Positions 3,705 through 21,153 of a DNA stretch of 32,000 nucleotides are shown one piece after another. The position numbers and the translations under genes are program-made. The stretch comes from Candidatus Methylomirabilis oxygeniifera (GTDB taxonomy: Bacteria; Methylomirabilota; Methylomirabilia; Methylomirabilales; Methylomirabilaceae): NCBI GenBank assembly GCA_000091165.1, contig FP565575.1, positions 1,980,001 to 2,012,000 on the forward strand. The letters run 5' to 3'. The notes beneath the pieces are model-generated. The model made no database searches and was not told the origin of the DNA. It saw only the letters and a list, made by a program, of their open reading frames with translations. Positions within the stretch are counted from its first letter, which is position 1. Every line of letters starts with the position of its first letter.

Positions 3705-4154
3705 CTACACACGGATCCCGAGTTCCGCCAGCTTACCCGCGTAATCCTCAGGGTCCCGCTCCTGGGCGCAAAAGGATGTCCAACGTTCTCTGTTCCAGAT
3801 TTCGATCTTGTCCAACACCCCAACGATCACGACATCCCGTCGCAGATCTGCCTTTTCCCGAAGTTGCGGGGGGATCAGGATTCGCCCCTGACTGTCAACC
3901 GTCGACTCGACCGCATGAGCCGAGATGAGGCGAGCGTACTCCCGAAACTTCCTGTCCGAGTTTCCGTGACTCAGGAGATTCTGCTCAATCTGCTGCCAAG
4001 CTTTGATCGGGTAGGCTACGATGCAGGCGTCAAACAGGGGATCGACGAGGATAAGCTCACGCTCTCGCCGCCGTTTAAGAATCTCGCGGTATCTGGCCGG
4101 GATGCTGAGCCGTCCCTTGTCGTCAATGGCGTGTTCGAAGCTTCCGCGGAACAT
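3705..4154 (-). CDS. mraZ: Transcriptional regulator MraZ
   Basis: 149 aa with two SpoVT/AbrB-like repeats carrying DxxxR motifs (DDKGRLSIPARYRE and DSQGRILIPPQLRE). It is the first gene of the dcw cluster. Confidence 0.92.
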   Translation of the reverse strand: MFRGSFEHAIDDKGRLSIPARYREILKRRRERELILVDPLFDACIVAYPIKAWQQIEQNLLSHGNSDRKFREYARLISAHAVESTVDSQGRILIPPQLREKADLRRDVVIVGVLDKIEIWNRERWTSFCAQERDPEDYAGKLAELGIRV

Positions 4155-4383: not shown

Positions 4384-5232
4384 TCAGGCAGGTGTGATGA
4401 TACAGTTATCAATGAGGCGCGTCTCGCCGAATCGCACGGCGAGGGCCAACAATACGGGGCCATCAACGCGATCGAGCGGCTGCAGCGTGTCCGGGTGACA
4501 GAGAGTCACATAATCGATCCGCGCCAACGGTTCACCTTCGATCATTGCTCGTACCGCATCAACGATGGTCTTGGCGCTGCGCTCCCCGATCTTCACCCGC
4601 TCTTCCGCACGGCTGAGCGACGCATAGAGGACAGCGGCCGCCCGTCGCTGCGGCGTCGTCAACCGAACGTTTCGAGAGCTCATCGCGAGGCCGTCGGCCT
4701 CACGCGCGGTTGGCAGCACCACGACATCAAGGCCAAAGTGAAGATCCGCTACCAAGCGCCGAACTACCACCGATTGCTGATAGTCCTTCTGTCCGAAGTA
4801 GGCCCGGTGCGGCCTGATAAGATTGAACAGTTTCGCGACCAGTGTGGTGACACCGTGAAAGTGGCCCGGACGCGATGCGCCGCACAACCCTTCGGTGAGC
4901 TCGGTGACGTCAACGTATGTCTGAAAGCCCTTCGGGTAGATCGCCTCTGCGGACGGCGTAAACGCCAGATCGACCCCTGCCCTCTCCGCCTGGGCCAGAT
5001 CCCCTGGCAGATCCCGTGGGTAGCTGTCGAAATCCTCTCCCCGTCCGAATTGAATCGGATTCACAAAGATACTCACCACGACGATATCGTTGTTCTTGCA
5101 CGCGCTCCGCATAAGCGAGACGTGTCCCTCGTGAAAGGCACCCATTGTCGGCACAAGTCCGATGGTCTTCCCTTCGCGCCGAAGCGACTCACAGCAGCGT
5201 TGGATTGCGGACGGTTCATCAATGACTTGCAC
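4384..5232 (-). CDS. panC: Pantoate--beta-alanine ligase
   Basis: 282 aa with a GTG start. The motif LVPTMGAFHEGHVSLM is the PanC HxGH nucleotidyltransferase signature. The gene is adjacent to panB. Confidence 0.92.
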   Translation of the reverse strand: MQVIDEPSAIQRCCESLRREGKTIGLVPTMGAFHEGHVSLMRSACKNNDIVVVSIFVNPIQFGRGEDFDSYPRDLPGDLAQAERAGVDLAFTPSAEAIYPKGFQTYVDVTELTEGLCGASRPGHFHGVTTLVAKLFNLIRPHRAYFGQKDYQQSVVVRRLVADLHFGLDVVVLPTAREADGLAMSSRNVRLTTPQRRAAAVLYASLSRAEERVKIGERSAKTIVDAVRAMIEGEPLARIDYVTLCHPDTLQPLDRVDGPVLLALAVRFGETRLIDNCIITPA

Positions 5233-5312: not shown

Positions 5313-6155
5313 TTACAGCTCCAGCAGGGCGTTCTCGGTCTCCTGGTCGATCGGATATGTATGTTCGGCCTCAGGGAATCGGCAATCGATCACGTCCTGC
5401 CGAAATTGGCCCACAGCATCGCCGATGATCCCGGCGAGATTCGCGTACTGCTTCGTGAACCTTGGGACAAAACGATCGAACAGCCCGAGCAGGTCGTGGA
5501 GGACCAGCACCTGACCGTCACAATGAGGCCCGGCGCCGATCCCGATGGTAGGCACCGTCAACCTGTCGGTAATAACCCTGGCGAGCGCACCGGGAATCGC
5601 CTCAAGTACGATCGCGAAGACCCCCGCCTGCTCAAGCGCCAGAGCATCCTCAAGGATGCGGCGGGCGTCGTCGAGCCCTTTCCCCTGAACCTTCAACCCT
5701 TCCTGCAAGACCGCCGTTTGTGGGGTCAGCCCAACATGTCCCATGACCGGAATCCCCGCCTCCACAATCGCCCTCACACATGGGAGCGAAGGCCAACCTC
5801 GCTCGACCTTGACAGCGTGAGCCAGGCCCTCTTTTATGAACCGCCCGGCGTTTCTGATTGCATCGGCCGGTTCGGCCTCATACGACATGAACGGCATGTC
5901 GGCAATTATCATGGCTCGTTTGACAGCGCGGGTCACTGCCTTGGTCATCATGAGCATCTCGTCCATGGTGACAGGGATCGTCGTCTCATATCCCAGGACC
6001 GTCATCCCGCCGGAGTCACCCACCAGGATCAGATCGATCCCGGCACGATCAACCAGCAACGCCATCGGATAATCATACGCCGTCAGCATGGTGATCTTCC
6101 GCCCTTCGCGCTTCATCTGCTGCAGCGTGACCGTCCTGACCGTCTGACTGGTCAT
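5313..6155 (-). CDS. panB: 3-methyl-2-oxobutanoate hydroxymethyltransferase
   Basis: 280 aa with an ATG start. The sequence MLTAYDYPMALLVDRAGIDLILVGDSGGM is typical of PanB. Confidence 0.92.
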   Translation of the reverse strand: MTSQTVRTVTLQQMKREGRKITMLTAYDYPMALLVDRAGIDLILVGDSGGMTVLGYETTIPVTMDEMLMMTKAVTRAVKRAMIIADMPFMSYEAEPADAIRNAGRFIKEGLAHAVKVERGWPSLPCVRAIVEAGIPVMGHVGLTPQTAVLQEGLKVQGKGLDDARRILEDALALEQAGVFAIVLEAIPGALARVITDRLTVPTIGIGAGPHCDGQVLVLHDLLGLFDRFVPRFTKQYANLAGIIGDAVGQFRQDVIDCRFPEAEHTYPIDQETENALLEL

Positions 6156-6334: not shown

Positions 6335-6991
6335 TTACGTGCGGGATCCGAGCGGCACATAGTATTGGGTGCCTGGCCGAACCGTCTCGATCTGTTTAAC
6401 CAGATCTTCAAAATCCTCCTTGTGCCTGACAAAGTCGATCTCGTTGGTATTGACAACTAGCAGCGGCGTCGCTGAATAGTGAAAGAAAAAATGGTTGTAG
6501 GCGGCGTTGACGTCCTCCAGGTAGGACTGCTCCAGCTCACGCTCGGACGCCCGCGCCCGTGACTGAATCCGTCGAATCAGGACATCGGTGCCGGCCTGCA
6601 GATACAGGACGAGGTCGGGTTTGACGACGCGCGTCTCCAGAAGCGGCTGCAACCGCTCGTAAAGGGCCAGCTCGTTGTCGTCGAGCGTCAGGTACGCAAA
6701 GATCTTGTCTTTGACGAATAGATAGTCGCTCACCAGCGACTGCTTAAAAAGATCGAACTGGGCCAGTTCCTGCTGTTGGCGGAATCGGTTCAACAGGAAA
6801 TAGAGCTGGGTCTGAAAGGCATACCGACGCATGTCGGTGTAGAATTGCGTAATAAATGGATTCTCGTCGGGACCCTCCAACAACTTACCGGCTTGAAGCC
6901 GTTCCGCCAGCAATTCGGCGAGGCTCGTCTTGCCGACACCGATCGGCCCTTCGACCACGATGTAACGAGGTTTGAGTGCGCGACCAGTCAT
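6335..6991 (-). CDS. Deoxynucleoside kinase family protein
   Basis: 218 aa with the P-loop EGPIGVGKTSLAELLA. The overall dNK/dCK-dGK-like layout is present (ENPF...FY, LVSDY, R-rich lid IRRIQSRAR). The ATG abuts the folK stop (TAGATG). Confidence 0.8.
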   Translation of the reverse strand: MTGRALKPRYIVVEGPIGVGKTSLAELLAERLQAGKLLEGPDENPFITQFYTDMRRYAFQTQLYFLLNRFRQQQELAQFDLFKQSLVSDYLFVKDKIFAYLTLDDNELALYERLQPLLETRVVKPDLVLYLQAGTDVLIRRIQSRARASERELEQSYLEDVNAAYNHFFFHYSATPLLVVNTNEIDFVRHKEDFEDLVKQIETVRPGTQYYVPLGSRT

Positions 6992-7522
6992 CTATGCATC
7001 CTCGCCAGACCACGCACACCAGGCTGCCGGAGCCAACAGCCGGACGCGCGACGAATCGTCGACACGATCGAGCAACTGCTGCATGGTGACGCCAAAGACA
7101 GGATGGCGGAGAGCCGGATCAAGTTCGCAGAGTGGTGTCAGGACAAAACGCCGCTGATGCAGCCGCGGGTGGGGGAGGATCAAATTCGGTTGCTCCACAA
7201 CCTGTGAACCCATGAGCAGCAGGTCGAGATCGATACTCCGATCCACGCCTTGCGCTCGCTCTGCCGCGCGACCCATGCTCCGTTCAATCCGTTGTAGTTC
7301 GAGGAGCAATGCGCCCGGCGTTAGCTCAGCCTGCACCAAGACGACTCCGTTAACAAACCAGCCGCCGGTGGCGGGAGGAACTGGCGCGGTCTCATAGAGC
7401 GATGAGGCGCGTCTCACTGCGACCCCCGCGATCTCCGATATAGCCCTAATAGCTGTCTGACAGCGTTCGATTCGGTCGCCCAGATTAGATCCGATCCCGA
7501 TATACGCGCAATCGCTCATCAT
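6992..7522 (-). CDS. folK: 2-amino-4-hydroxy-6-hydroxymethyldihydropteridine diphosphokinase
   Basis: 176 aa. AYIGIGSNLGDR at the N-terminus and IDLDLL...LILPHPRLHQRRFVLTPL are classic HPPK motifs. Confidence 0.9.
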   Translation of the reverse strand: MMSDCAYIGIGSNLGDRIERCQTAIRAISEIAGVAVRRASSLYETAPVPPATGGWFVNGVVLVQAELTPGALLLELQRIERSMGRAAERAQGVDRSIDLDLLLMGSQVVEQPNLILPHPRLHQRRFVLTPLCELDPALRHPVFGVTMQQLLDRVDDSSRVRLLAPAAWCAWSGEDA

Positions 7523-7579: not shown

Positions 7580-8761
7580 CTATCTTGGCCGGAGATTCGA
7601 GGCGGCAATCCGCTCAATCGCCTCCCTAATCCGGGAGACGTCCACCGTCAGGGCCGCTCGGATATACCCTTCACCGCTCCGGCCAAATCCTGTCCCCGGG
7701 GTCATGACAATACCGACATCAGAAAGTAGCGCCGAGGCGAAGGAAGCGGAGGTATGTTCCTTCGGAACACCGATCCAGACATAGAAGGTCGCTTGAGGTT
7801 TGTCCACCACGAATCCGAGCGCCAACAGACCATCTACAAGCGCATCGCGCCTCTCTTTGTAGACGGCCCTCATCGCCTCAACACACTCCTGCGGGCCGTT
7901 CAGCGCCGCGATGGCAGCCTCCTGCACCGCCTGGAAGACCCCTGAGTCCAGGTTGGTCTTAATCCGGCCAAGGCCGGACAGCACCTCACGGCAGCCGACC
8001 GCAAATCCAATCCGCCATCCGGTCATGTTGTACGTCTTGGACAGTGAATGGTACTCAATGGCCACGTCTTTTGCCCCCTCCACCGCCAAGAGGCTCTCCG
8101 GCAGGTACCCGTCGTACGCCATCTCGGAATAGGCTGCGTCGTGGCAGAGAATCAGCCGGTGTCTGCGCGCAAAGGCGACCGCCTCGGCAAAAAAGGCCCC
8201 GGACGCCACAGCAGCCGTCGGATTATTGGGGTAGTTCAGGAACATGATCCGAGCCTTCTTCAGAACCTCCGATGGGATCGCTTCAAGATCCGGCAGGAAC
8301 GACCGTTCCCGCGTAAGCGGCATAAAGTACGGGATCCCGTCGGCAAAGACGGTTCCTGCCTGATACACCGGATAGCCTGGATCGGGAACCAGGACGACGT
8401 CACCCGGATCGATAAACGCGAGGGGGATGTGGCCGATCCCCTCTTTCGATCCGATCAGGCTCAGCACCTCAGTCTGCGGGTCAAGCGTCACGCCGAACCG
8501 TTTACCGTACCAGTCGGCCACGGCCTGTCGAAAGCTCAGCATCCCTTCGTATGAAGGGTACTGGTGGTTGCGCGAGTCGGCCGAAGCCTGCTGCATCCTT
8601 GCGATGATGTGCGACGGTGTCGGCAGGTCAGGGTCGCCGACTCCCAGGTTGATGATATCCATGCCGCGACGGATCGCGTCCTGCTTCAAGCGGTCGATTT
8701 CAGCAAAGAGATACGGCGGCAGCTTTGACAGCCGCTGTGCCACACTAAAGGGTTCTCCCAT
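7580..8761 (-). CDS. dapL: Class I/II PLP aminotransferase, probable LL-diaminopimelate aminotransferase
   Basis: 393 aa with a GGAGGAG RBS. It has an LPPYLFAEID N-terminus and the PLP-lysine motif SLSKTYNMTGWRIG. It is clustered with dapB, dapA, dapF and lysA, and no dapD, dapC or dapE is present in the cluster. Confidence 0.7.
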   Translation of the reverse strand: MGEPFSVAQRLSKLPPYLFAEIDRLKQDAIRRGMDIINLGVGDPDLPTPSHIIARMQQASADSRNHQYPSYEGMLSFRQAVADWYGKRFGVTLDPQTEVLSLIGSKEGIGHIPLAFIDPGDVVLVPDPGYPVYQAGTVFADGIPYFMPLTRERSFLPDLEAIPSEVLKKARIMFLNYPNNPTAAVASGAFFAEAVAFARRHRLILCHDAAYSEMAYDGYLPESLLAVEGAKDVAIEYHSLSKTYNMTGWRIGFAVGCREVLSGLGRIKTNLDSGVFQAVQEAAIAALNGPQECVEAMRAVYKERRDALVDGLLALGFVVDKPQATFYVWIGVPKEHTSASFASALLSDVGIVMTPGTGFGRSGEGYIRAALTVDVSRIREAIERIAASNLRPR

Positions 8762-10536: not shown

Positions 10537-11421
10537 TCACGGGATCAGACCGTAGGCCCGCATGGCCGTTTTGAGTCGGTTCAGATTGGGCTCGCTCATC
10601 GGGCAGAGCGGCAGGCGAAGCTCGCCGCTGATCATCCCCAAAATCGCCATGGCGGTCTTCACCGGGATCGGGTTGGTCTCGTAAAACATCGCCTGGCAGA
10701 GCGGGAAGAGCTTCAGGTGTATCTCCCTGGCGCGCTTCCAGTCGCCGCCAAGGAACGCATGAGTCAAGTCGGCCACATCGCGCGGCACGATGTTGGCGAT
10801 CACCGATATCACGCCTCGCCCTCCCACCGCCAGAAGCGGCAGCGTGAGTGTATCATCCCCAGACAGAAACGAGAGCTTGTCCCCGCACAGGACGATGTCA
10901 TGGGTCATCTGTTCCAGGTTGCCGGTCGCCTCCTTCATGCCGACGATATACGGATGATCCGCCAATACCGCCAGCGTCTCCGGCAGCATGTTGATCCCCG
11001 TCCTTCCCGGGATGTTGTAGAGAATCAACGGCAACTCCGCGGCATCGGCAACAGCGCGGCAGTGCGCGATGAGGCCCGACTGGGTCGGCTTGTTGTAATA
11101 GGGGAGGACCAGGAGGGCGCCGTCGGCCCCGGCCTGCCTGGCAAAGCGGGTCAGATCGATCGCTTCATCTGTGCTATTCGACCCGGTCCCGGCGATAACC
11201 GCAACACGCCTGTTCGCCACCTCAACCGTCAGCTCGATGACGCGTCTGTGCTCATCATGGCTGAGGGTCGGGGATTCCCCTGTCGTCCCGCACGGAATCA
11301 GGGCATCGGTGCCGTTGTTGATATGAAACTCTACCAACCCGCGGAGCATCGGCTCGTCGACCCGTCCGCCTTGGAAGGGAGTCACCAACGCCACCATCGA
11401 CCCCTGAAACTTTCTCTTCAT
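10537..11421 (-). CDS. dapA: 4-hydroxy-tetrahydrodipicolinate synthase
   Basis: 294 aa. It contains GTTGESPTLS and the Schiff-base lysine context VGMKEATGN. Confidence 0.92.
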   Translation of the reverse strand: MKRKFQGSMVALVTPFQGGRVDEPMLRGLVEFHINNGTDALIPCGTTGESPTLSHDEHRRVIELTVEVANRRVAVIAGTGSNSTDEAIDLTRFARQAGADGALLVLPYYNKPTQSGLIAHCRAVADAAELPLILYNIPGRTGINMLPETLAVLADHPYIVGMKEATGNLEQMTHDIVLCGDKLSFLSGDDTLTLPLLAVGGRGVISVIANIVPRDVADLTHAFLGGDWKRAREIHLKLFPLCQAMFYETNPIPVKTAMAILGMISGELRLPLCPMSEPNLNRLKTAMRAYGLIP

Positions 11422-14025: not shown

Positions 14026-16913
14026 GATCTACGCTGAAGCCGAAGGATTTGTTCGGCGAGTTCCACCATACGATCTCTTCCAACCACGGGCAGAAGCACC
14101 TTGTACAGCTCGGCCTTCAGGTGGCGGAGGTGAGCGGTGTTGTACCGGTAGTTCGGAAACCGTCCAACGGCAGCATCGATGAGGGGCGCGACCCTTTCGG
14201 GCTCCGAAGCTCCTGCTTGCTTGAGGACCCAATAGATCGTAAAGGTGTTGAGATCGAATCCCGTCTGCTCGCGTTCCCTGGTTGCCTGGGCATACTCCGC
14301 CAGCAACCTCTCAAGTTGCTTCAGCGCCTCCTGCGTGCTGATCTGTCGATCATCGTACGATTCCAGGACGGCCTCCGCCCGCTCACCGATTGGCACCAGG
14401 TAGGGTTGCTGTTCGCCTTTTTCATTTACGCCCTGGATGAGGCTCCTGCCAAGATTGATGACCTTCGCAGGCCCGGAGCCGTCGGCCTTCCTTAACGCCT
14501 CGAGAGTCTTTTCGTCGATCTTCACCAAAGGCATGGAGGTTGGAAGTGTATACGCCCGAGCCCACTCACGAACCAACGATTCGGTCTTCTTGGCAATCTC
14601 CTCATACAGAACAGGGCCTTGTCTGAAGGCGTTTCGGACGATCTGGTAGAGAACGGAAAGCTTCTTGTAGCTGTCGAGTTGGGGCCGCAAGAATGGGTCC
14701 GGGGAGATGATCTCGTAAAGGGCCTCAATCTCCCTGAAGAATGTGTAGAATCGTTCCCGCCGCTCCCTGTCGGCAAATGCGTCGATGGCCAGCTCGACGG
14801 CCTTGTCGTCAATAGGATCTTCGCAGAACGCGAGATACGGCTGTGCCTCTACGGCTATGAGCGCGGCGAAGCGCTCCTTGAGGACATCGAGGTTTTGGAT
14901 GACGCTGGCGACGGTGTCGGAATCGAAAGCCAGTGCCTTTTCGAGCTTCTCAAAAATTCCGACGAAATCCAGGACAAAGCCGCCCGGCTTCTTAACCCCG
15001 CCCTCATCCTGATATGGCCTGTTGACGCGGGCAATGGCCTGCAGCAGCGTGTGATCCCGCATCGGCTTGTCCAGGTACATGCAGTAGAGGATGGGAGCGT
15101 CGAAGCCGGTCAGGAGCTTTTCGGTTACGATGAGAATCTTCGGAAGTGAGTCCCGTTTGAGGAACGTCTTCCGAATCGCTTTTTCGTCGTCCTTGCTCAG
15201 TCGGTACTGAGCCAGGATATCATCGTCATCGAGAGCGGAAGAGTAGACGACGGTGGAGTAGTCAGGAGGCAGATACCGGTCCAGTGCCCTCTTGTACAGG
15301 GCGCACGCCTCCCGATCGACCCCCACGAGAAAGGCCTTGTAGCCGAGTGGCTCGACGTTCTCACGGAAATGGCGAGCGACATACTGAGCCACCTGCTCAA
15401 CGCGATCGGACGCCTTCAAAAATGCCTTGAGCCTTACGGCCTTATTGAGGATTCGGTTCAGCTCCTCGATATCGCTCACGCCCTCGGCTTCCACCAGGTC
15501 CAGGAACTCTCTTTCGAGCTGCTCCCGCGGCACTCTGATATCGTTTGGCGCCAGGGTGTAATGCAACTCCAGGGTCGTGCCGTCCTCGATCGACTCGGAG
15601 ATGGAATACTTGTCCAGATATCCCTGGGGATCATCCTTGCCAAAGACCTTGAAGGTCCCCTTGCCGTAGGCGATCTTATCGATGGGCGTCCCAGTGAAAC
15701 CGATCATCGTGGCATTCGGCAGGGCGGCGACCAAGTAGTTTCCGAGGTCTCCGCTCATGCTCCGGTGGGCCTCATCCACCAGGATGAAGACATTGTTTCG
15801 GGTACACAAGTCTGCGTCGGCCCGGTCGAATTTGTGAATCATCGAGACGATCAACCCCCGGTAGTCGGCGCGCAACAGCTCGCGCAGGTGCGCCTTGCTC
15901 CGGGCAAGCTCGGCCTTACCGTCACCGAAGACGCTTACGATCCAGCCGGCGAGTTGCCCTTCCAACTCGTTGCGATCGACCAGCATGATGACCGTAGGCT
16001 TCTCAAAGGCCGGATGGCGAAGGATCTGCTCCGCAGCCTTAATCATCGTGAAGGTCTTGCCAGAGCCTTGGGTGTGCCAGACCAGCCCCCGGGTCTTCTC
16101 CGGGTCGAGTACGCGGTCCACTACCTTTTCGACGACGCGAGTCTGGTGCTGGCGGAGGACGATCTTACGCAGCTCATCGTCCCGGGTATAGAAGATAATC
16201 CACTCACCCATGAGCTTGAGAAATCGCTCGCGGCTGAAGAAGCGCTTGACCTTCCTTTCGAAGTCGCCGCGCTCCTCATCCTTCCAGTTGAAGATATCCT
16301 TTCGGTCAAGATTCCAGGTGACGCCATAATAGAAGTCGATGAGATGGGTGACGTTAAAGAGTTGTGGCGCCGTCATCAGTTCGGGGGTCTCCCGGTGGTA
16401 GCGCCGGAGACGGACGATTGCCTCGTCGATACCGGCCGGTCTTCTCGCCCCTTTAGTCTCCACGAGCGCCAGGGGGATGCCGTTGATCACAAACATGACA
16501 TCGGCGCGATTCGTGTGCTGTCCGTTGGTGTATTGCCACTCCTCCGTCACGTGGAAGACATTGTGGGCTGGATGCTCAAAATCGATGAGGATTACGTTGC
16601 GCTGGCGCTTTTCATTCTGAACATACACCGACCGCTCACCCCGAAGCCACGCAAGCATTTCAGCATTGCCTTCGATGGTATTCCGGACGCTCTCGATGCT
16701 GGCGATGACCTGATCGACGTTGTCTATCGTCACGACACCGGGATTGAGGGCGATAAGCTTGTCTCGAAGGGTCGGATAGAGCAGCGTGCCGCTCTCCCCG
16801 CGCCTGAGTGTCAGGGCCTCATCGGGCGACAGATAACCCCACCCGATCTCTACGGCATAGCCGATCATCGGGTCCTGTACCGTAGAGCGTTCGGTTCCGA
16901 GATTAGGAGGCAT
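14022..16913 (-). CDS. hsdR: Type I restriction enzyme R subunit (SF2 helicase/translocase + nuclease)
   Basis: The track ORF starts at TTG 16928. ATG 16913 gives MPPNLGTER..., matching the start of the relic copy at 18790. It has the helicase motifs TQGSGKTFT (I) and ILVDEAHRS (II), with type I HsdR length and layout. Confidence 0.92.
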   Translation of the reverse strand: MPPNLGTERSTVQDPMIGYAVEIGWGYLSPDEALTLRRGESGTLLYPTLRDKLIALNPGVVTIDNVDQVIASIESVRNTIEGNAEMLAWLRGERSVYVQNEKRQRNVILIDFEHPAHNVFHVTEEWQYTNGQHTNRADVMFVINGIPLALVETKGARRPAGIDEAIVRLRRYHRETPELMTAPQLFNVTHLIDFYYGVTWNLDRKDIFNWKDEERGDFERKVKRFFSRERFLKLMGEWIIFYTRDDELRKIVLRQHQTRVVEKVVDRVLDPEKTRGLVWHTQGSGKTFTMIKAAEQILRHPAFEKPTVIMLVDRNELEGQLAGWIVSVFGDGKAELARSKAHLRELLRADYRGLIVSMIHKFDRADADLCTRNNVFILVDEAHRSMSGDLGNYLVAALPNATMIGFTGTPIDKIAYGKGTFKVFGKDDPQGYLDKYSISESIEDGTTLELHYTLAPNDIRVPREQLEREFLDLVEAEGVSDIEELNRILNKAVRLKAFLKASDRVEQVAQYVARHFRENVEPLGYKAFLVGVDREACALYKRALDRYLPPDYSTVVYSSALDDDDILAQYRLSKDDEKAIRKTFLKRDSLPKILIVTEKLLTGFDAPILYCMYLDKPMRDHTLLQAIARVNRPYQDEGGVKKPGGFVLDFVGIFEKLEKALAFDSDTVASVIQNLDVLKERFAALIAVEAQPYLAFCEDPIDDKAVELAIDAFADRERRERFYTFFREIEALYEIISPDPFLRPQLDSYKKLSVLYQIVRNAFRQGPVLYEEIAKKTESLVREWARAYTLPTSMPLVKIDEKTLEALRKADGSGPAKVINLGRSLIQGVNEKGEQQPYLVPIGERAEAVLESYDDRQISTQEALKQLERLLAEYAQATREREQTGFDLNTFTIYWVLKQAGASEPERVAPLIDAAVGRFPNYRYNTAHLRHLKAELYKVLLPVVGRDRMVELAEQILRLQRRS

Positions 16914-17027
16914 ACCATCTATTCCCAATTTCCGTCAGAATTGCTTGGGATTTGTTTTTTATCTACAATTCAGTAAGCAAATAAAGACAAGAGAAATCAT
17001 ATTGTTACAACCACGAATTGCTTTTTA

Positions 17028-18686
17028 TCACGTGTTACCTGTGTCTTTTGATGCAATTCCGGGATCTGCGCCTGGATACCAACGGCTAGCCTTGGTGTGA
17101 CCGACATTGTGAATTCGCCCCTCGGATTTAAGTTCTCTGAGTAATGTCTGGACTTGGGCTCTCGACAGTGCCGGCAGGACCTGCATCAACTCCCGGAGTT
17201 GGCTACCCTCTGTCTCATTTTCCTCAATGTGCCTCGCAAGTAGCGTCTTATTCGTTTCGCGATCAAGACCCCGTCTTCGAGTATAGGCGCCTTTCCTACC
17301 CATAAATTGGTGGAACCGCCTTGACAGAAGGTAGCGGGCTCCCTTGCCATGGCCTACGGTCTCAATGACGCCCCGATCCCTTAAGATGGCTAACCGATCT
17401 TTCAATACTGGGGCGATCCGTTGCTCCCTATGAACCAAGTCCAAAACAAGCAGATCTTCGAGTGTAAACGATGCCAAGGTTTCCTTGCCGATCTTCTCAA
17501 GAAATCGTAGAAACACAGGGTCTTGAACATCACCCCGGAGGGTAAGGAACACCTGGTAGTCATCGGTCCCCGAGAAATCAGGTCGAGGTTTGCTTTCCCT
17601 GATGCACTGCCTAAACATTCGGTCGGCTCCTTGACCTGCGCGCTCAACCAGCCCGCACCTGGCAAACACCTCTGCGATTCGGCGGTTCCGGGGAACTTGC
17701 TTTCTTAAGATGTTTTCGGGTGTAACACCAGGCGGGAAACCGCCAGGGCTGATGACCTCCAACTTTCGAGGCAACTGACGGACAAAGACTGACCCTGCTA
17801 GACGATAATCACGATGGCTGACCGCGTTGAGGATTGCCTCGCGAACTACCATCTCATTGAAAGTAGGGATATCCCACACATAAAGACCATCCTGAAAATG
17901 CTGGACTTCATTGCGAAGGTTGATCGTATCCCATAAATCGTCGTTAAAGAGAAAAAAGCCTTGTCGGTACTCTTTACGTTGCTGATAAGGAATTGAGGCC
18001 TCACTGGACCGATACTCGAAGATTACCTCTGACTGTGCCAAGTGCCTACCAATTGCTTGCCTGGTCCCAAGAAGGATCAAGGCGGCATAAGTAACGCTGC
18101 CGTTCACGATCAACTCCGCATCCTTCAAGAGCTGCTCACCTGAAAGTTGCGCAAGAGCCTCATTTCCGGATTTACGGCGCCACATCTCACGGAAGCGTTG
18201 GACAGCCAATGGATCGAGATCAGCAGGCATCGCAGGGGGGCAGAGTTCGGCCGAAAAATCTGGTCCGGCTTCATCGAAAATGCGTTTAAGTTGATCGGGT
18301 GTCATCGGCACCAACGCCTCGCCACCCCGCATCCAGTAGGCGCCCTTGTATTGGATCGGCATGCCAATTGGACGAGGCGGCACTGAAATCACAAGGACCC
18401 GACCATCTGGATGCAATACCTCGTCAATCTCAATGCGCAAATGCAGACGTTCGATAAGCCCCGACTTGGTGCGTTCCAGATGTTCGAACGCGCGACTGCC
18501 GACGATCCGTCTCGGTAGCTTGTTCGTAATACCGAGAACCATCCGGCCGCCGCCTTCGTTAGCCAGCGCGACGCAGTACCTGACCAACTCCTCAAATTCG
18601 TAACTGTTCTTCGCTTCCTTGAACTCAAGGTGCTCGTCTTCCTTGCTGTCCATCCACCTTCGGATCTCGTCTAGACTTACACTCAT
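17028..18686 (-). CDS. AlbA_2 (Schlafen-like) + HATPase_c_4 + C-terminal wHTH protein (family often mis-annotated as RecG-like or transcriptional regulator)
   Basis: Starts at ATG 18686 (MSVSLDEIRRWMDSKEDEHLEFKEAKNSYEFEELVRYCVALANEGGGRMVLGI), a typical AlbA_2 N-terminus. The central AILNAVSHRDY region is HATPase_c_4-like. The C-terminal LRELMQVLPALSRAQVQTLLRELKSEGRI is wHTH-like. Domain calls are from memory of the family consensus, not from a search. Confidence 0.7.
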   Translation of the reverse strand: MSVSLDEIRRWMDSKEDEHLEFKEAKNSYEFEELVRYCVALANEGGGRMVLGITNKLPRRIVGSRAFEHLERTKSGLIERLHLRIEIDEVLHPDGRVLVISVPPRPIGMPIQYKGAYWMRGGEALVPMTPDQLKRIFDEAGPDFSAELCPPAMPADLDPLAVQRFREMWRRKSGNEALAQLSGEQLLKDAELIVNGSVTYAALILLGTRQAIGRHLAQSEVIFEYRSSEASIPYQQRKEYRQGFFLFNDDLWDTINLRNEVQHFQDGLYVWDIPTFNEMVVREAILNAVSHRDYRLAGSVFVRQLPRKLEVISPGGFPPGVTPENILRKQVPRNRRIAEVFARCGLVERAGQGADRMFRQCIRESKPRPDFSGTDDYQVFLTLRGDVQDPVFLRFLEKIGKETLASFTLEDLLVLDLVHREQRIAPVLKDRLAILRDRGVIETVGHGKGARYLLSRRFHQFMGRKGAYTRRRGLDRETNKTLLARHIEENETEGSQLRELMQVLPALSRAQVQTLLRELKSEGRIHNVGHTKASRWYPGADPGIASKDTGNT

Positions 18687-18790
18687 GGCTGTATCGCTTC
18701 CGGTGAGAGATAGCCCCACCCGATCCCGACGGCGCACCCGACGAGGGGATCTTGAACGATTGGCCGTTCGGTTCCGAGATTAGGATGCAT
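18683..18790 (-). pseudogene. Relic 5' end of a second, diverged hsdR (35 codons), now a leader ORF overlapping the AlbA_2 start
   Basis: It translates to MHPNLGTERPIVQDPLVGCAVGIGWGYLSPEAIQP*, versus MPPNLGTERSTVQDPMIGYAVEIGWGYLSPDEAL for the real HsdR N-terminus. My hand alignment gives 68/90 nt and 23/30 aa identical. Its TGA overlaps the AlbA_2 ATG (ccATGAgt). Confidence 0.8.
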
Positions 18791-18810
18791 CACGGCGAAT
18801 TGACCAATCC

Positions 18811-19725
18811 TTAACCGCTGAATTCACTAGCGGCAAGATACGCCTCCCCTGTCTGCGACGCGTGTCTTCTCACACGCTCAACAACGTCCGCAAGGCCCAT
18901 GATTCCACCAAGGATCAGATACAGATGGTTGTGGTCAAACAGTAGAATCGGAGTTCTTTCTCCTGATGCTTCCTGTAGGGCGACTGACGAGTACCCGGAG
19001 ATCGAAACCATGATGCCCATCGTATTGTCCGCCTTTGAAGTAACCTTCTTGAAAAAGGTGTCGATATCGTTGGCGCCCGCTTGTTCGGTGGTGAATTTCA
19101 GCTCTACGAGGTAAGTGGTACCGGAAAGCGTCAGCGAGCCGTCGATCTGGCGACCTGCGTGGACATAGGGCTTACGATTAGGAATTTCGGAGAAATCGAC
19201 CAGGTCGTAGAACCAGTTCTGGAAATCATATCCTGCCTGTTGATCTCCGAGCCTCGTACCCAATTCGGTCAATCGGTCATTGAGTTTTTTGAGGGACTGT
19301 TGGGAGCGACTGACTTGCCCCTGACGTTTTCGAAATTCCTCCTTGGCTTTCTGTTTCTCTTCTTCCGATTGCAGTTCGTCCTCTTGCTGGGAGTGGTACA
19401 CGCGCAGGCGTGTGACGGCATCGTGCGCGGCCTTGATTTTCTGCGCCGAGTCTTCCCAATTCTGGAGATCCGGAAAAGTTTGTTGATCCATTAGGTGGGT
19501 GGCAATTCGCAAGAGCCCTGAGCGCCCTTGGTCGGTCTTCGGAAGCTCAGTAAAGACGCGATCAAGGAAGTCTCTCTTTGTCTCCTCAGACCCCCACGTC
19601 GCTATGAACGACTCGGAAATCCCACACTGGCGGAGAAACTTCGACAACGCTTTCTTCCTCCAGAATGACTTCAGGCAGGTGTCGTAAACCAAGCCAATGT
19701 AGTATGGTGTCAATCGAGACTTCAC
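18811..19725 (-). CDS. Unknown N-terminal domain + coiled coil + C-terminal PD-(D/E)xK (Mrr_cat-like) nuclease domain
   Basis: 304 aa with a GTG start (uncertain). A charged coiled segment (QQEDELQSEEEKQKAKEEFRKRQGQVSRSQQSLKKLNDRLTEL) precedes GYDFQNWFYDL...GRQIDGSL...YLVELKF. This supplies the D (19141-19143) and ExK (19096-19104) of a restriction-endonuclease fold. Confidence 0.65.
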   Translation of the reverse strand: MKSRLTPYYIGLVYDTCLKSFWRKKALSKFLRQCGISESFIATWGSEETKRDFLDRVFTELPKTDQGRSGLLRIATHLMDQQTFPDLQNWEDSAQKIKAAHDAVTRLRVYHSQQEDELQSEEEKQKAKEEFRKRQGQVSRSQQSLKKLNDRLTELGTRLGDQQAGYDFQNWFYDLVDFSEIPNRKPYVHAGRQIDGSLTLSGTTYLVELKFTTEQAGANDIDTFFKKVTSKADNTMGIMVSISGYSSVALQEASGERTPILLFDHNHLYLILGGIMGLADVVERVRRHASQTGEAYLAASEFSG

Positions 19726-19800
19726 TGTTTTTTGGCCAACGCCTCGGCGCCGATCGGCCAGCAGAGCTAGCCCGCTGAAGCGCCCTATTCTGCGTGCCCT

Positions 19801-21153
19801 CTATTTCTTCAGGACCGCCAGTATCTTCGCAGCTACAACTGCCACTCCCTCCGCAGACTGCGCTGCGACTCGATCAGCCAGGGTCGGCGAGTAAGCCAGG
19901 ACGCCGTCACGATCGGTCTCGTGCCACACAGGCAGCACAGCCTTCTCGCCCGACGCCGTCTCACGAGCGACGAGCCCGTCAAGCTCTTTCTGCGGCCACT
20001 GTTTCCGAAAGAAGTGAGGGCTTAGGATGACCACCCCATACCGGCATTTCGTGAGGCCTTCGTCGATCTTGCGGCGCAAGCTATCGCCCAGTTCCAGGAC
20101 CGCCTCGTCAAACCACACCCTCACGCCCTGAGCGTTGAGTTCCTGATACAGCGGTCGCGCGATCGCATCTTTGTCCTCGGACGCATGCGAAATGAAGACG
20201 TCGAATGGTTCGAGTTGCTGGTTCTGCGCCTGCCCCGCTTGACTGGGCTCTTGGATTCGCTTGTCGATCGATGTGAGGGCCTCGGCCTGCTGCTGTTTGA
20301 GGTCCGTGATTTGCCGATGAATCGCCATCTCGGAGGGTTGGGTTTGCGCCACCCTCGTGATAGCCTCAAGCGCGTGCTGCACGTCGGCCACCAGATCCTG
20401 AAACGCCTGGGAAGGCAGATCGAAACCCGGTGTCTGTTGAGCGAGTTGCAAAAGTTGCTGACCCAGTTCCTGGACCTGGATCGCCGATTCAGCAGTCGGC
20501 TTGGCTTGAAATTGTCGGAAAGCCGCCTCGAACTGCGCCCTTACCTGGTTTAGAGCCGTCAGCGGTCGGGTAGGAGCAAGAAGGTTGAAAACCGCTGTCT
20601 GTTGTTGCTTGACATTCTCCCGCACTTGTCCCCATTGCCGCGCTAGGTCCAGCTTTTTGTTCAACGCGCCGTGAATGTTGATGATCGATTGAGTCTCCCC
20701 TGTCTCCTGACTGCGTTGCGTGGCCAGTAGGGCGATGTCAATCTCTGACCAGATTTTAGCTAAGGTCCTTTCTCGCATAGCATCAAACGAGGGGAGGGCA
20801 TTGCCACGCAAGTTCTCACTAGCGAAACGATGTATCGTGATCAGGTCGTCACAGTCAGCGGCCAGTTGACTAGCAATCTCCTCTTTAAGCTGACGATTGA
20901 GCCCAACATCGATAGCTAACGATTGACCTGATACAATACGGCTCAGCACTTTCCAAGCCAGCAGTGCCCGGATGTCCAGTTCGCGCATGAGCGCCTGTCC
21001 GGTTTTCTCCTTTAATCCCCCCGACGTCCCAAGGCCCTGAAGAGCCAGCTCCTGCTGGATTTCTTGGACCTCTCGGCTAAATCTTTCCCGCCGTCCGTCA
21101 AATTCGATTCGGATTCGCGTTATAGCGAGTTCAAGTAGCTCAGGGTTTAACAT
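19801..21153 (-). CDS. Unknown helical/coiled-coil N-terminal region + C-terminal TIR domain protein
   Basis: The C-terminal ~135 aa read FDVFISHASEDKDAIARPLYQELNAQGVRVWFDEAVLELGDSL...VVILSPHFFRKQWPQKELDGL, a bacterial TIR_2-type domain. The conserved Glu lies in WPQKEL (codon 19984-19986). ATG 21153 overlaps the hsdS 3' end by 14 nt; the track start is TTG 21189. Confidence 0.8.
   Translation of the reverse strand: MLNPELLELAITRIRIEFDGRRERFSREVQEIQQELALQGLGTSGGLKEKTGQALMRELDIRALLAWKVLSRIVSGQSLAIDVGLNRQLKEEIASQLAADCDDLITIHRFASENLRGNALPSFDAMRERTLAKIWSEIDIALLATQRSQETGETQSIINIHGALNKKLDLARQWGQVRENVKQQQTAVFNLLAPTRPLTALNQVRAQFEAAFRQFQAKPTAESAIQVQELGQQLLQLAQQTPGFDLPSQAFQDLVADVQHALEAITRVAQTQPSEMAIHRQITDLKQQQAEALTSIDKRIQEPSQAGQAQNQQLEPFDVFISHASEDKDAIARPLYQELNAQGVRVWFDEAVLELGDSLRRKIDEGLTKCRYGVVILSPHFFRKQWPQKELDGLVARETASGEKAVLPVWHETDRDGVLAYSPTLADRVAAQSAEGVAVVAAKILAVLKK

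Follow-up and report, generated by a model that had tools for sequence, protein, structure and literature searches.

A fragment of the hsdR start precedes the AlbA_2 gene embedded in a type I restriction operon of Candidatus Methylomirabilis oxygeniifera

In type I restriction-modification systems, recombination at conserved regions of hsdS reshuffles the target-recognition domains. In class 1 integrons, an open reading frame (ORF) at attI, ORF-11, reportedly enhances the translation of cassettes that have no ribosome-binding site (RBS) of their own, a finding ascribed to Hanau-Bercot et al. in 2002. Effector-immunity modules of type VI secretion (T6SS) loci are displaced sequentially, and orphan arrays arise, by what has been proposed to be homology-facilitated illegitimate recombination (Kirchberger et al. 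2017, PMC5361080). Accessory genes inside type I operons are also on record: in the type IC locus EcoprrI, of the order hsdM-hsdS-prrC-hsdR, prrC is embedded and co-expressed (PMC12707154). How such embedded genes enter type I operons, stay expressed there and are exchanged had not been worked out before. Here we describe a type I operon in a 32,000-nt stretch of the genome of Candidatus Methylomirabilis oxygeniifera (contig FP565575.1, positions 1,980,001 to 2,012,000; hereafter the window), in which a gene with SLFN_AlbA_2 and HATPase_c_4 domains (AlbA_2 for short) is embedded upstream of hsdR. AlbA_2 is preceded by a 35-codon ORF, which we call the relic. Sequence comparison confirms the relic as a 5' gene fragment of hsdR derived from a diverged functional allele. 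In the literature searched (truncated hsdR; COG2865/Schlafen in type I loci; AlbA_2/HATPase_c_4), no description of hsdR-start duplications was found.

A copy of the hsdR start before AlbA_2

The relic reads on the minus strand from an ATG at 18790-18788 and translates as MHPNLGTERPIVQDPLVGCAVGIGWGYLSPEAIQP*, and HsdR read from ATG 16913 begins MPPNLGTERSTVQDPMIGYAVEIGWGYLSPDEAL. A local alignment of 18790-18699 with hsdR 16913-16822 runs for 92 nt without a gap, with 70/92 nucleotides (76%) and 23/31 amino acids identical; the original prediction of an HsdR N-terminus copy, made from counts of 68/90 and 23/30, is thereby upheld. The first 26 nt of the relic are nearly identical to the hsdR of the window (25/26), as had been seen before, and homology ends at codon 31. 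The last four codons and the stop (AIQP*) are junction sequence foreign to hsdR, and this 12-nt tail between the hsdR homology and the AlbA_2 ATG matches neither the hsdR nor the ygjP 3' end. The TGA of the relic (18685-18683) overlaps the AlbA_2 ATG (18686-18684); both this overlap and the end of homology at about codon 31 are where the prediction had placed them.

The similarity is specific to the two sites. In an independent repeat search, the relic/hsdR pair (16822-16913 and 18699-18790) is the longest direct repeat of the operon. The 20-mer shared by the two copies, CCTAATCTCGGAACCGAACG, occurs at only two sites in the 32 kb even when up to 3 mismatches are allowed, the expectation from shuffled sequences being 0.00. 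A profile of 80 HsdR N-termini matches the relic at E = 1e-9, and it finds matches only upstream of hsdR. These results dispose of the suggestion, raised as an alternative to the prediction, that a generic repeat could explain the similarity.

The differences between the copies are those of coding sequences. Third codon positions account for 16 of the 23 differences, and of the 19 codons that differ, 11 are synonymous, indicating that most of the divergence arose while both copies were part of working hsdR genes. The relic is closer to the hsdR alleles of two sister loci (77/92 for L087 and 75/92 for L095; L numbers denote loci compared with the window) than to the hsdR of the window itself. 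Both the predominance of third-position changes and the better match to sister alleles agree with the earlier proposal of a diverged hsdR allele, as opposed to a recent target-site duplication. The relic is no longer constrained as HsdR, since it stops after 35 codons and since it has C19 and G22 at two positions where all 8 aligned HsdR sequences of the family have Y19 and E22.

The same comparisons bear on two start codons. As judged by alignment, the hsdR start is ATG 16913 and not TTG 16928, in line with the prediction, because homologous N-termini from up to 80 loci align from this Met, because several relics begin at the equivalent codon, and because the homology of the window to L095 begins exactly there. 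The AT-rich spacer said to precede hsdR is present and has the expected composition (32% GC); its length is 114 nt, the 99 nt given earlier being the distance to TTG 16928. For AlbA_2, the N-terminus typical of the family, MxxxLDxLxxWM, favours ATG 18686 and not the GTG 18737 of the mechanical ORF list. Annotation would therefore gain from fixing hsdR at ATG 16913 and AlbA_2 at ATG 18686, and from treating short ORFs of the relic type as gene-end relics, not as new genes.

Relics, sequence exchange and gene content in the operon family

AlbA_2 homologues of 65-94% identity are found across phyla, and the closest, at 67-94%, lie in type I operons of the same design: hsdM with a helix-turn-helix (HTH) domain, a small variable gene, hsdS, variable cargo, AlbA_2, the spacer, hsdR and ygjP. 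This architecture was seen in L007, L031, L087-L094 and L097, so that an AlbA_2-hsdR unit does exist in related type I loci, across the operon family. The cargo of these operons includes DUF4238, SIR2-like and ORF6N genes, a nucleotidyltransferase/HEPN gene pair and unknown genes. Most of the close relatives have an hsdR-start relic before AlbA_2 (Table 1), and the window shares with more than 10 related loci a fragment of a conserved gene end beside its intact copy, with variable DNA between the two. The relic/AlbA_2 junction of the window, GGAAGCGAT[A/G]CAGCCATGA, is common to L087 and L175, and ...CCGGAAGCGATACAGCCATGA, likewise the junction of the window, is found again in L087 and, within L175, at relic r3. 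Since the same junction is found in both, it must have been inherited and predates the split from at least two sister lineages. The view of AlbA_2 as a private and recent insert therefore has to be given up: AlbA_2, spacer, hsdR and ygjP form a conserved module, whose junction with the relic is shared.

Two loci contain arrays, spanning 3708-7480 in L092 and 1508-6470 in L175. In L092, relics lie at 3708, 4538 and 6784 and the intact hsdR at 7386; the first relic is ATGA-coupled to the nucleotidyltransferase of the HEPN pair, the second precedes two small ORFs and AlbA_2, and the third is fused to a 188-codon ORF. The ORF upstream of AlbA_2 in this locus (4801-5004) and the ORF of its third relic (6784-7350) also share the peptide FFTATFRP..QVP..Y.TS, which is probably debris of another displaced gene. 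L175 was located via a 91% homologue of the Mrr-like gene of the window, which in L175, too, is followed by an hsdR relic. Its relics lie at 1508, 3239 and 4475 and its hsdR at 6346, in the order hsdS end, AbiU2, DUF4258/MqsA, r1, Mrr-like, r2, HicBA, HicB, r3, AlbA_2, hsdR, and a relic stands at a 2-nt gap from HicB. Relics before other cargo were found at a SWIM/DUF6880 gene in L157 (9-nt gap), at Fic in L118 and at unknown ORFs in L144. L089 has no hsdR relic and presents the mirror image of one: an hsdS 3'-end fragment (...LLSFLLHQFMTGQVRV...) at 4512-4601, downstream of SIR2-like cargo, with the intact hsdS upstream.

The frequency of relics was estimated from metagenomes scanned with an HsdR alignment, which provides an unbiased hsdR sample. 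Where hsdS abuts hsdR, none of 22 operons has a relic; among cargo-bearing operons there are 6 in 28 (5 of them distinct). Relics are thus tied to cargo boundaries. The HsdR N-terminus profile gave no further matches on either strand in a six-frame translation of 851 kb.

The relics share a common edge. In well-preserved sequence, all of the in-locus repeats that were measured (15/15) start within a few nucleotides of the hsdR start codon; they end 35-180 nt into hsdR, and 5' leaders are never shared. Relics also tend to resemble the hsdR beside them: out of 78 alleles, the local one comes first for 9 of the 16 relics compared and is within the top four for 15 of them. Relics compared with one another agree at 37-47 of 70 positions, and relics compared with hsdR starts at 44-57 of 70.

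Comparison of the window with L087 places a boundary within the relic itself. The two loci share an 89%-identical block that runs from about relic nt 35 through AlbA_2, the spacer, hsdR and ygjP, with 62/73 identities between nt 35 and the AlbA_2 ATG. Over relic nt 1-34 there are 20/34, and everything upstream differs. It is therefore within the relic that variable cargo gives way to the constant module. On the other side, nearly all related loci match the hsdS 3' end (~21265-21198) at 87-97% nucleotide identity, which makes this end the left conserved flank of the cargo slot. Between these edges the contents vary: hsdR of the window, L087, L095 and L175 is 86-90% identical, yet the cargo differs, and L095, with an hsdR 89% identical to that of the window, has no AlbA_2.

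Identities of AlbA_2 and HsdR are in general incongruent. In L007 and L097, hsdR is 96-98% identical from the ATG onward, the spacer and the 3' half of AlbA_2 are only 45-74% identical, and the AlbA_2 gene itself is a mosaic of a 5' half at 92-100% and a 3' half at 60-75%. From a point 12 nt inside AlbA_2 onward, L097 (at 3360) and L113 (at 3448) have 99.7% identity; upstream of it they are unrelated, L097 having its relic there and L113 a gene of 333 codons, the stop of which overlaps the ATG of AlbA_2. The start of AlbA_2 is thus a second exchange point. Sequence also appears to move between relics and intact genes. Nucleotides 27-52 of the window's hsdR (16862-16887, encoding S-T-V-Q-D-P-M-I) match relic r1 of L175 at 24/26 and other alleles at 14-20/26, and differ from L087 and L095, which suggests a flow between relics and working hsdR genes. 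A descent of the window relic from r2 and r3 of L175 by a deletion is suggestive only: its informative sites tend to be r2-like at the 5' side and r3-like at the 3' side, not cleanly so, and the spacer between the Mrr-like gene and the relic measures 20 nt in the window and 225 nt in L175. No tRNA genes were found in the seven loci scanned, which excludes attachment of the tRNA type.

In the window, all operon genes of interest lie on the minus strand according to Pfam and PADLOC scans (Table 1), and the operon sits between housekeeping genes, with uvrB and csp at one end and lysA, dapF, dapA and dapB at the opposite end. The stop codon of the Mrr_cat-like gene is 20 nt upstream of the relic ATG. 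The AlbA_2 protein matches SLFN_AlbA_2 (1e-11) and HATPase_c_4 (4e-16) in Pfam and receives no name from PADLOC or NCBIfam; its sole relative in the PDB is 3lmm, an uncharacterised protein. The hsdR product matches REase_I of PADLOC at 7e-97. An identical AlbA_2 protein is encoded on 9 contigs, assigned to Candidatus Methylomirabilis oxyfera, and the gene order is the same at all 6 AlbA_2 places listed, from NCBI, ENA and several Logan runs. As the assemblies and runs are independent of one another, an assembly artefact does not explain the arrangement. A scan of 16700-19900 revealed no sigma-70-like promoter, and the one terminator-like site in the same interval is on the opposite strand, below shuffle expectation.

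Table 1. Features of the operon in the window (upper rows) and relics before AlbA_2 in related loci (lower rows).
Feature	Coordinates	Strand	Basis or remark
hsdM with N-terminal HTH_3 domain	25711-23765	-	Pfam, PADLOC; first gene of the operon
245-aa gene, no assigned function	23347-22610	-	
hsdS	22492-21140	-	Pfam
TIR-domain gene (PDC-S66/ThsB-like), cargo	21189-19801	-	Pfam, PADLOC, NCBIfam
Mrr_cat-like nuclease gene, cargo	19725-18811	-	Pfam
Relic ORF, 35 codons	18790-18683	-	homology to the hsdR start
5' third of relic, nt 1-34	18790-18757	-	travels with upstream cargo
3' two-thirds of the hsdR-homologous part of the relic	18756-18699	-	orthologous to L087 and L175-r3 relics; belongs to conserved AlbA_2-hsdR module
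SLFN_AlbA_2 (Schlafen-like)/HATPase_c_4 gene, 552 aa	18686-17028	-	Pfam
AT-rich spacer (hsdR 5' leader), 114 nt, 32% GC	17027-16914	-	
Intact hsdR, 963 aa from ATG 16913	16913-14022	-	Pfam HSDR_N, SWI2_SNF2, ResIII, T1R_D3-like
YgjP-like gene	14025-13696	-	last gene of the conserved module; overlaps hsdR stop
L087 relic			31 codons, 1-nt deletion (frameshifted)
L007 and L097 relics			24 codons, TAA, 3 nt, ATG
L091 and L094 relics			26 codons, ATGA
L031 relic			12 codons, in frame into AlbA_2
L088 relic			decayed copy without start

Several further features of these loci were noted. An HTH_3 domain of the XRE type is present at the hsdM N-terminus in the window and in every related operon in which this N-terminus is visible, and may be a built-in controller of the operon. 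The spacer contains the motif AAGCAATTCTGAC at 16946-16934 on the minus strand; in most related loci, a GCAATTCYGA motif is again present in the AT-rich leader that lies upstream of hsdR, and in L097 upstream of the relic too. It may be an hsdR promoter or a regulatory element. The 304-aa Mrr_cat-like protein belongs to a family of 72-91% identity with more than 100 metagenomic clusters, whose members sit in quite different neighbourhoods, for example adjoining a D12 methyltransferase; so conserved a family in such differing surroundings amounts to a mobile single-gene module. Other Mrr-like homologues (L176-L179) lie outside type I loci and have no relic.

AlbA_2 is also flanked by direct repeats in contexts other than type I. 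In L008 these are 5658-5983 against 7926-8151 and 11137-11239; the upstream copy is an internally deleted PLD/SNF2 helicase gene, with its 5' end joined to its 3' end and its stop abutting the AlbA_2 ATG, and an intact copy lies downstream. Comparable repeats occur in L041 (5385-5875 and 7649-8138) and L059 (5726-5870 and 7576-7719). These three loci hint that a docking principle of the kind considered below for the hsdR start may reach beyond type I systems. In two loci of the Nitrospira type, L009 (5707-5917 and 7867-8077) and L012 (5564-5808 and 7796-8040), repeats of 211-245 nt that are 90-92% identical surround AlbA_2; translation of those in L009 shows that they carry, on the opposite strand, copies of a gene for a small HNH endonuclease.

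Origin of the relic and its possible roles

The reading we favour, and consider rather probable, is that the relic is the displaced 5' end of a resident hsdR, left behind by incoming DNA that carried cargo and an hsdR 5' end, and that it later served as a homology arm. DNA consisting of AlbA_2, the leader and an hsdR 5' end would have entered a type I operon and paired with it on one side by hsdR homology; on the other side it would have been joined illegitimately at about codon 31 of the resident gene. Such an event would regenerate an intact hsdR and strand the old start codon and 31 codons upstream of the insert. It would be older than the split from at least two sister lineages. Repetition of the process within the operon family with other cargo would give rise to arrays in which a copy of the hsdR start precedes each cassette. 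The earlier proposal of a cassette exchange into an older hsdR stands in this respect, since the topology that it put forward, in which an insert with a new hsdR 5' end is attached to an older hsdR at about codon 31, agrees with what the family shows.

Once in place, the relic would provide hsdR homology at the right edge of the cargo slot, and the conserved hsdS 3' end would do the same at the left edge. Later double crossovers, in the hsdS 3' end and in the relic, could then swap the cargo and renew the relic's head with sequence from hsdR alleles of the donor or the resident. Renewal of this kind would account for a head that matches at 25/26 followed by a diverged remainder.

Several observations weigh against this displacement scheme. 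We infer one-sided homologous pairing with illegitimate joining from end products only, and no donor or intermediate was found. Nor was there any excision, deletion or empty-site variant: contigs with an identical HsdR (8, of which 4 places are listed) all have the one arrangement. As many as 22 of 28 cargo-bearing operons are without a relic, so relic formation is not required for the gain of cargo. Finally, the short length of the relics (12-60 codons) is not explained by the model alone.

As to a present function, the start codon and open frame of the relic could deliver ribosomes to AlbA_2 by termination and reinitiation. That the relic acts as a translationally coupled leader ORF is plausible from the arrangement of its codons, and we see the chances for and against as about balanced. 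At most of the relic junctions examined, three cargo types included, a start codon is retained together with an open frame that ends 0-9 nt from the next start. This geometry is kept after indels that change the frame, as ATGA in L091 and L094 and as an in-frame copy with TAA and 3 nt in L007 and L097. In other contexts, the stop of an upstream ORF usually overlaps AlbA_2, and this ORF is often a gene of more than 400 codons.

The main competitor to both the later homology arm and the leader role is that the relic is a neutral scar, an old recombination leftover with no present role, in which case AlbA_2 would use a weak RBS of its own and the ATGA overlap would be incidental. We regard this as possible, if less probable than the scheme above. 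Most of the evidence for it also speaks against coupling. Most AlbA_2 genes start with ATGA in every context, and hence have a TGA in the +1 frame; because the A at the fourth nucleotide is a family trait, the overlap is weak evidence for coupling. A GGAAG 10 nt ahead of the AlbA_2 ATG, conserved at the junctions of the window, L087 and L175-r3, could be the gene's own Shine-Dalgarno (SD) site, and the relic ATG is not preceded by a good one. Some copies could hardly work as leaders, that of L087 being frameshifted and that of L088 having no start, and the window relic has changed at residues that are invariant in the 8 aligned HsdR sequences. Moreover, fragments of coding sequence 25-35 codons long would keep their open frame for a long time even in the absence of selection. 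Against a neutral scar stand the start codons and open frames, which reach to within 0-9 nt of the next gene at most junctions despite indels, and the real upstream genes that usually overlap AlbA_2 elsewhere.

A more doubtful proposal is that the hsdR start is a recombinase-free docking site for promoterless defence or toxin-antitoxin (TA) cassettes, that is, an integron-like gene capture system made from a gene end. Equally doubtful are its two corollaries, namely that each insertion regenerates hsdR and leaves a start codon and the first 12-60 codons translating the cargo, and that relic and hsdR start let cassettes excise, move and re-insert among related type I operons. The exchange itself, which we hold no likelier, would proceed by excision of the cassette between relic and hsdR as a circle and re-integration by a single crossover at another hsdR start; that every such event would regenerate hsdR and add a leader ORF is just as tentative. 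The three-relic arrays of L092 and L175 and the repeats that start at the start codon speak for this proposal, as do the variable presence of AlbA_2 among ~89% identical hsdR alleles (window and L087 against L095) and the mosaic relation between relics and hsdR 5' sequences. In addition, the diverged copies of the window contain an identical 21-nt block, about the size needed for a homologous crossover. However, the contigs listed for the species showed neither a circle nor a deletion variant nor an empty site, and most cargo has no relic. The junctions lie at 12, 24, 31, 38, 43 and 50 codons, which points to a separate illegitimate event for each cassette and not to one conserved site, and RecA works poorly on repeats that are 35-180 nt long and 76-91% identical.

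It is improbable that the relic is a duplicated regulatory element, in the sense that the first ~30-90 nt of the hsdR message form a cis control site, for instance one controlling translation of the nuclease, that was copied before the cargo, giving common regulation of cargo and hsdR, and kept by selection. Relic and hsdR are indeed more similar within a locus than between loci, the head of the window relic is 25/26 identical to hsdR, and the HTH domain of hsdM could be the controller. Yet relics vary in length and sequence, with no nucleotide block conserved across loci beyond what the protein imposes. No locus has a 5' untranslated region common to its copies, some copies are frameshifted or decayed, and the differences follow a coding pattern, mostly at third positions. 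Lastly, it is very improbable that the direct repeat flanking AlbA_2 is either the target-site duplication of a transposable element that carried the gene, which is contradicted by the length of the repeat (92 nt), its identity of only 76% with coding-type differences, the lack of terminal inverted repeats and the lack of a transposase or integrase in the operon or the annotated flanking genes, or a chance or generic repeat, given a 20-mer at two sites only with 0 expected and a profile that matches only upstream of hsdR.

Significance and comparison with known systems

The duplicated hsdR starts, and the one duplicated hsdS end, are physical traces of insertions by which cargo was gained without inactivating the restriction gene, and the relics mark the crossover sites of later exchanges. 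Their simple signature, a copy of one of the operon's own gene ends inside the operon, makes it possible to locate the boundaries of cargo across genomes and to date its insertion. If relics do drive the translation of cargo, this would explain how genes without a promoter or RBS become functional on arrival.

Several described systems invite comparison. In prr, as in the window, an accessory gene lies between hsdS and hsdR of a type I operon; unlike PrrC and RloC, which combine an ABC-ATPase head with an anticodon-nuclease domain, AlbA_2/HATPase_c_4 has no similarity to PrrC that Pfam, PADLOC or NCBIfam can detect, and to our knowledge no hsdR relic has been described for prr. AlbA_2 has the Schlafen core fold, and eukaryotic Schlafens cut tRNA; by analogy, a guardian role like that of PrrC is conceivable. 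The shuffling of hsdS domains is similar in that conserved type I segments serve as crossover points. In contrast to those domain swaps, which leave no duplicated gene ends, whole genes are exchanged here and gene-end fragments remain.

The ORF at attI of integrons is like the relic in being short and in ending near the start of a promoterless insert, whose translation it can drive, and in both cases arrays build up. Unlike integrons, the operon genes and their annotated neighbours contain no integrase domain, and there are no attC-like inverted repeats at the window. Unlike the attI ORF, the relic is a fragment of a neighbouring gene that is re-created with each insertion, so that junctions vary.

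The closest parallel is with Rhs, contact-dependent inhibition (CDI) and T6SS loci. There, as in the operon family of the window, a conserved gene is the homology anchor and the incoming DNA brings a variable part together with a replacement end. The old end is kept as an orphan, repetition gives arrays, and orphans recombine with the main gene. The differences are threefold. Whereas the displaced pieces of Rhs, CDI and T6SS are toxin 3' ends, the piece here is the 5' end of a restriction gene, and the arrays grow upstream. Whereas their variable parts are tips of one protein with an immunity gene, the cargo before hsdR consists of unrelated whole genes (TIR, Mrr-like, HicAB, the nucleotidyltransferase/HEPN pair, Fic and AlbA_2). 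And whereas the orphans of Rhs and CDI await re-fusion, the hsdR orphan supplies a start codon and a putative leader ORF to its cargo. The embedding of genes in type I loci is already known; what the hsdR relics add, by analogy, is a mirror image of the gene-end displacement of Rhs, CDI and T6SS.

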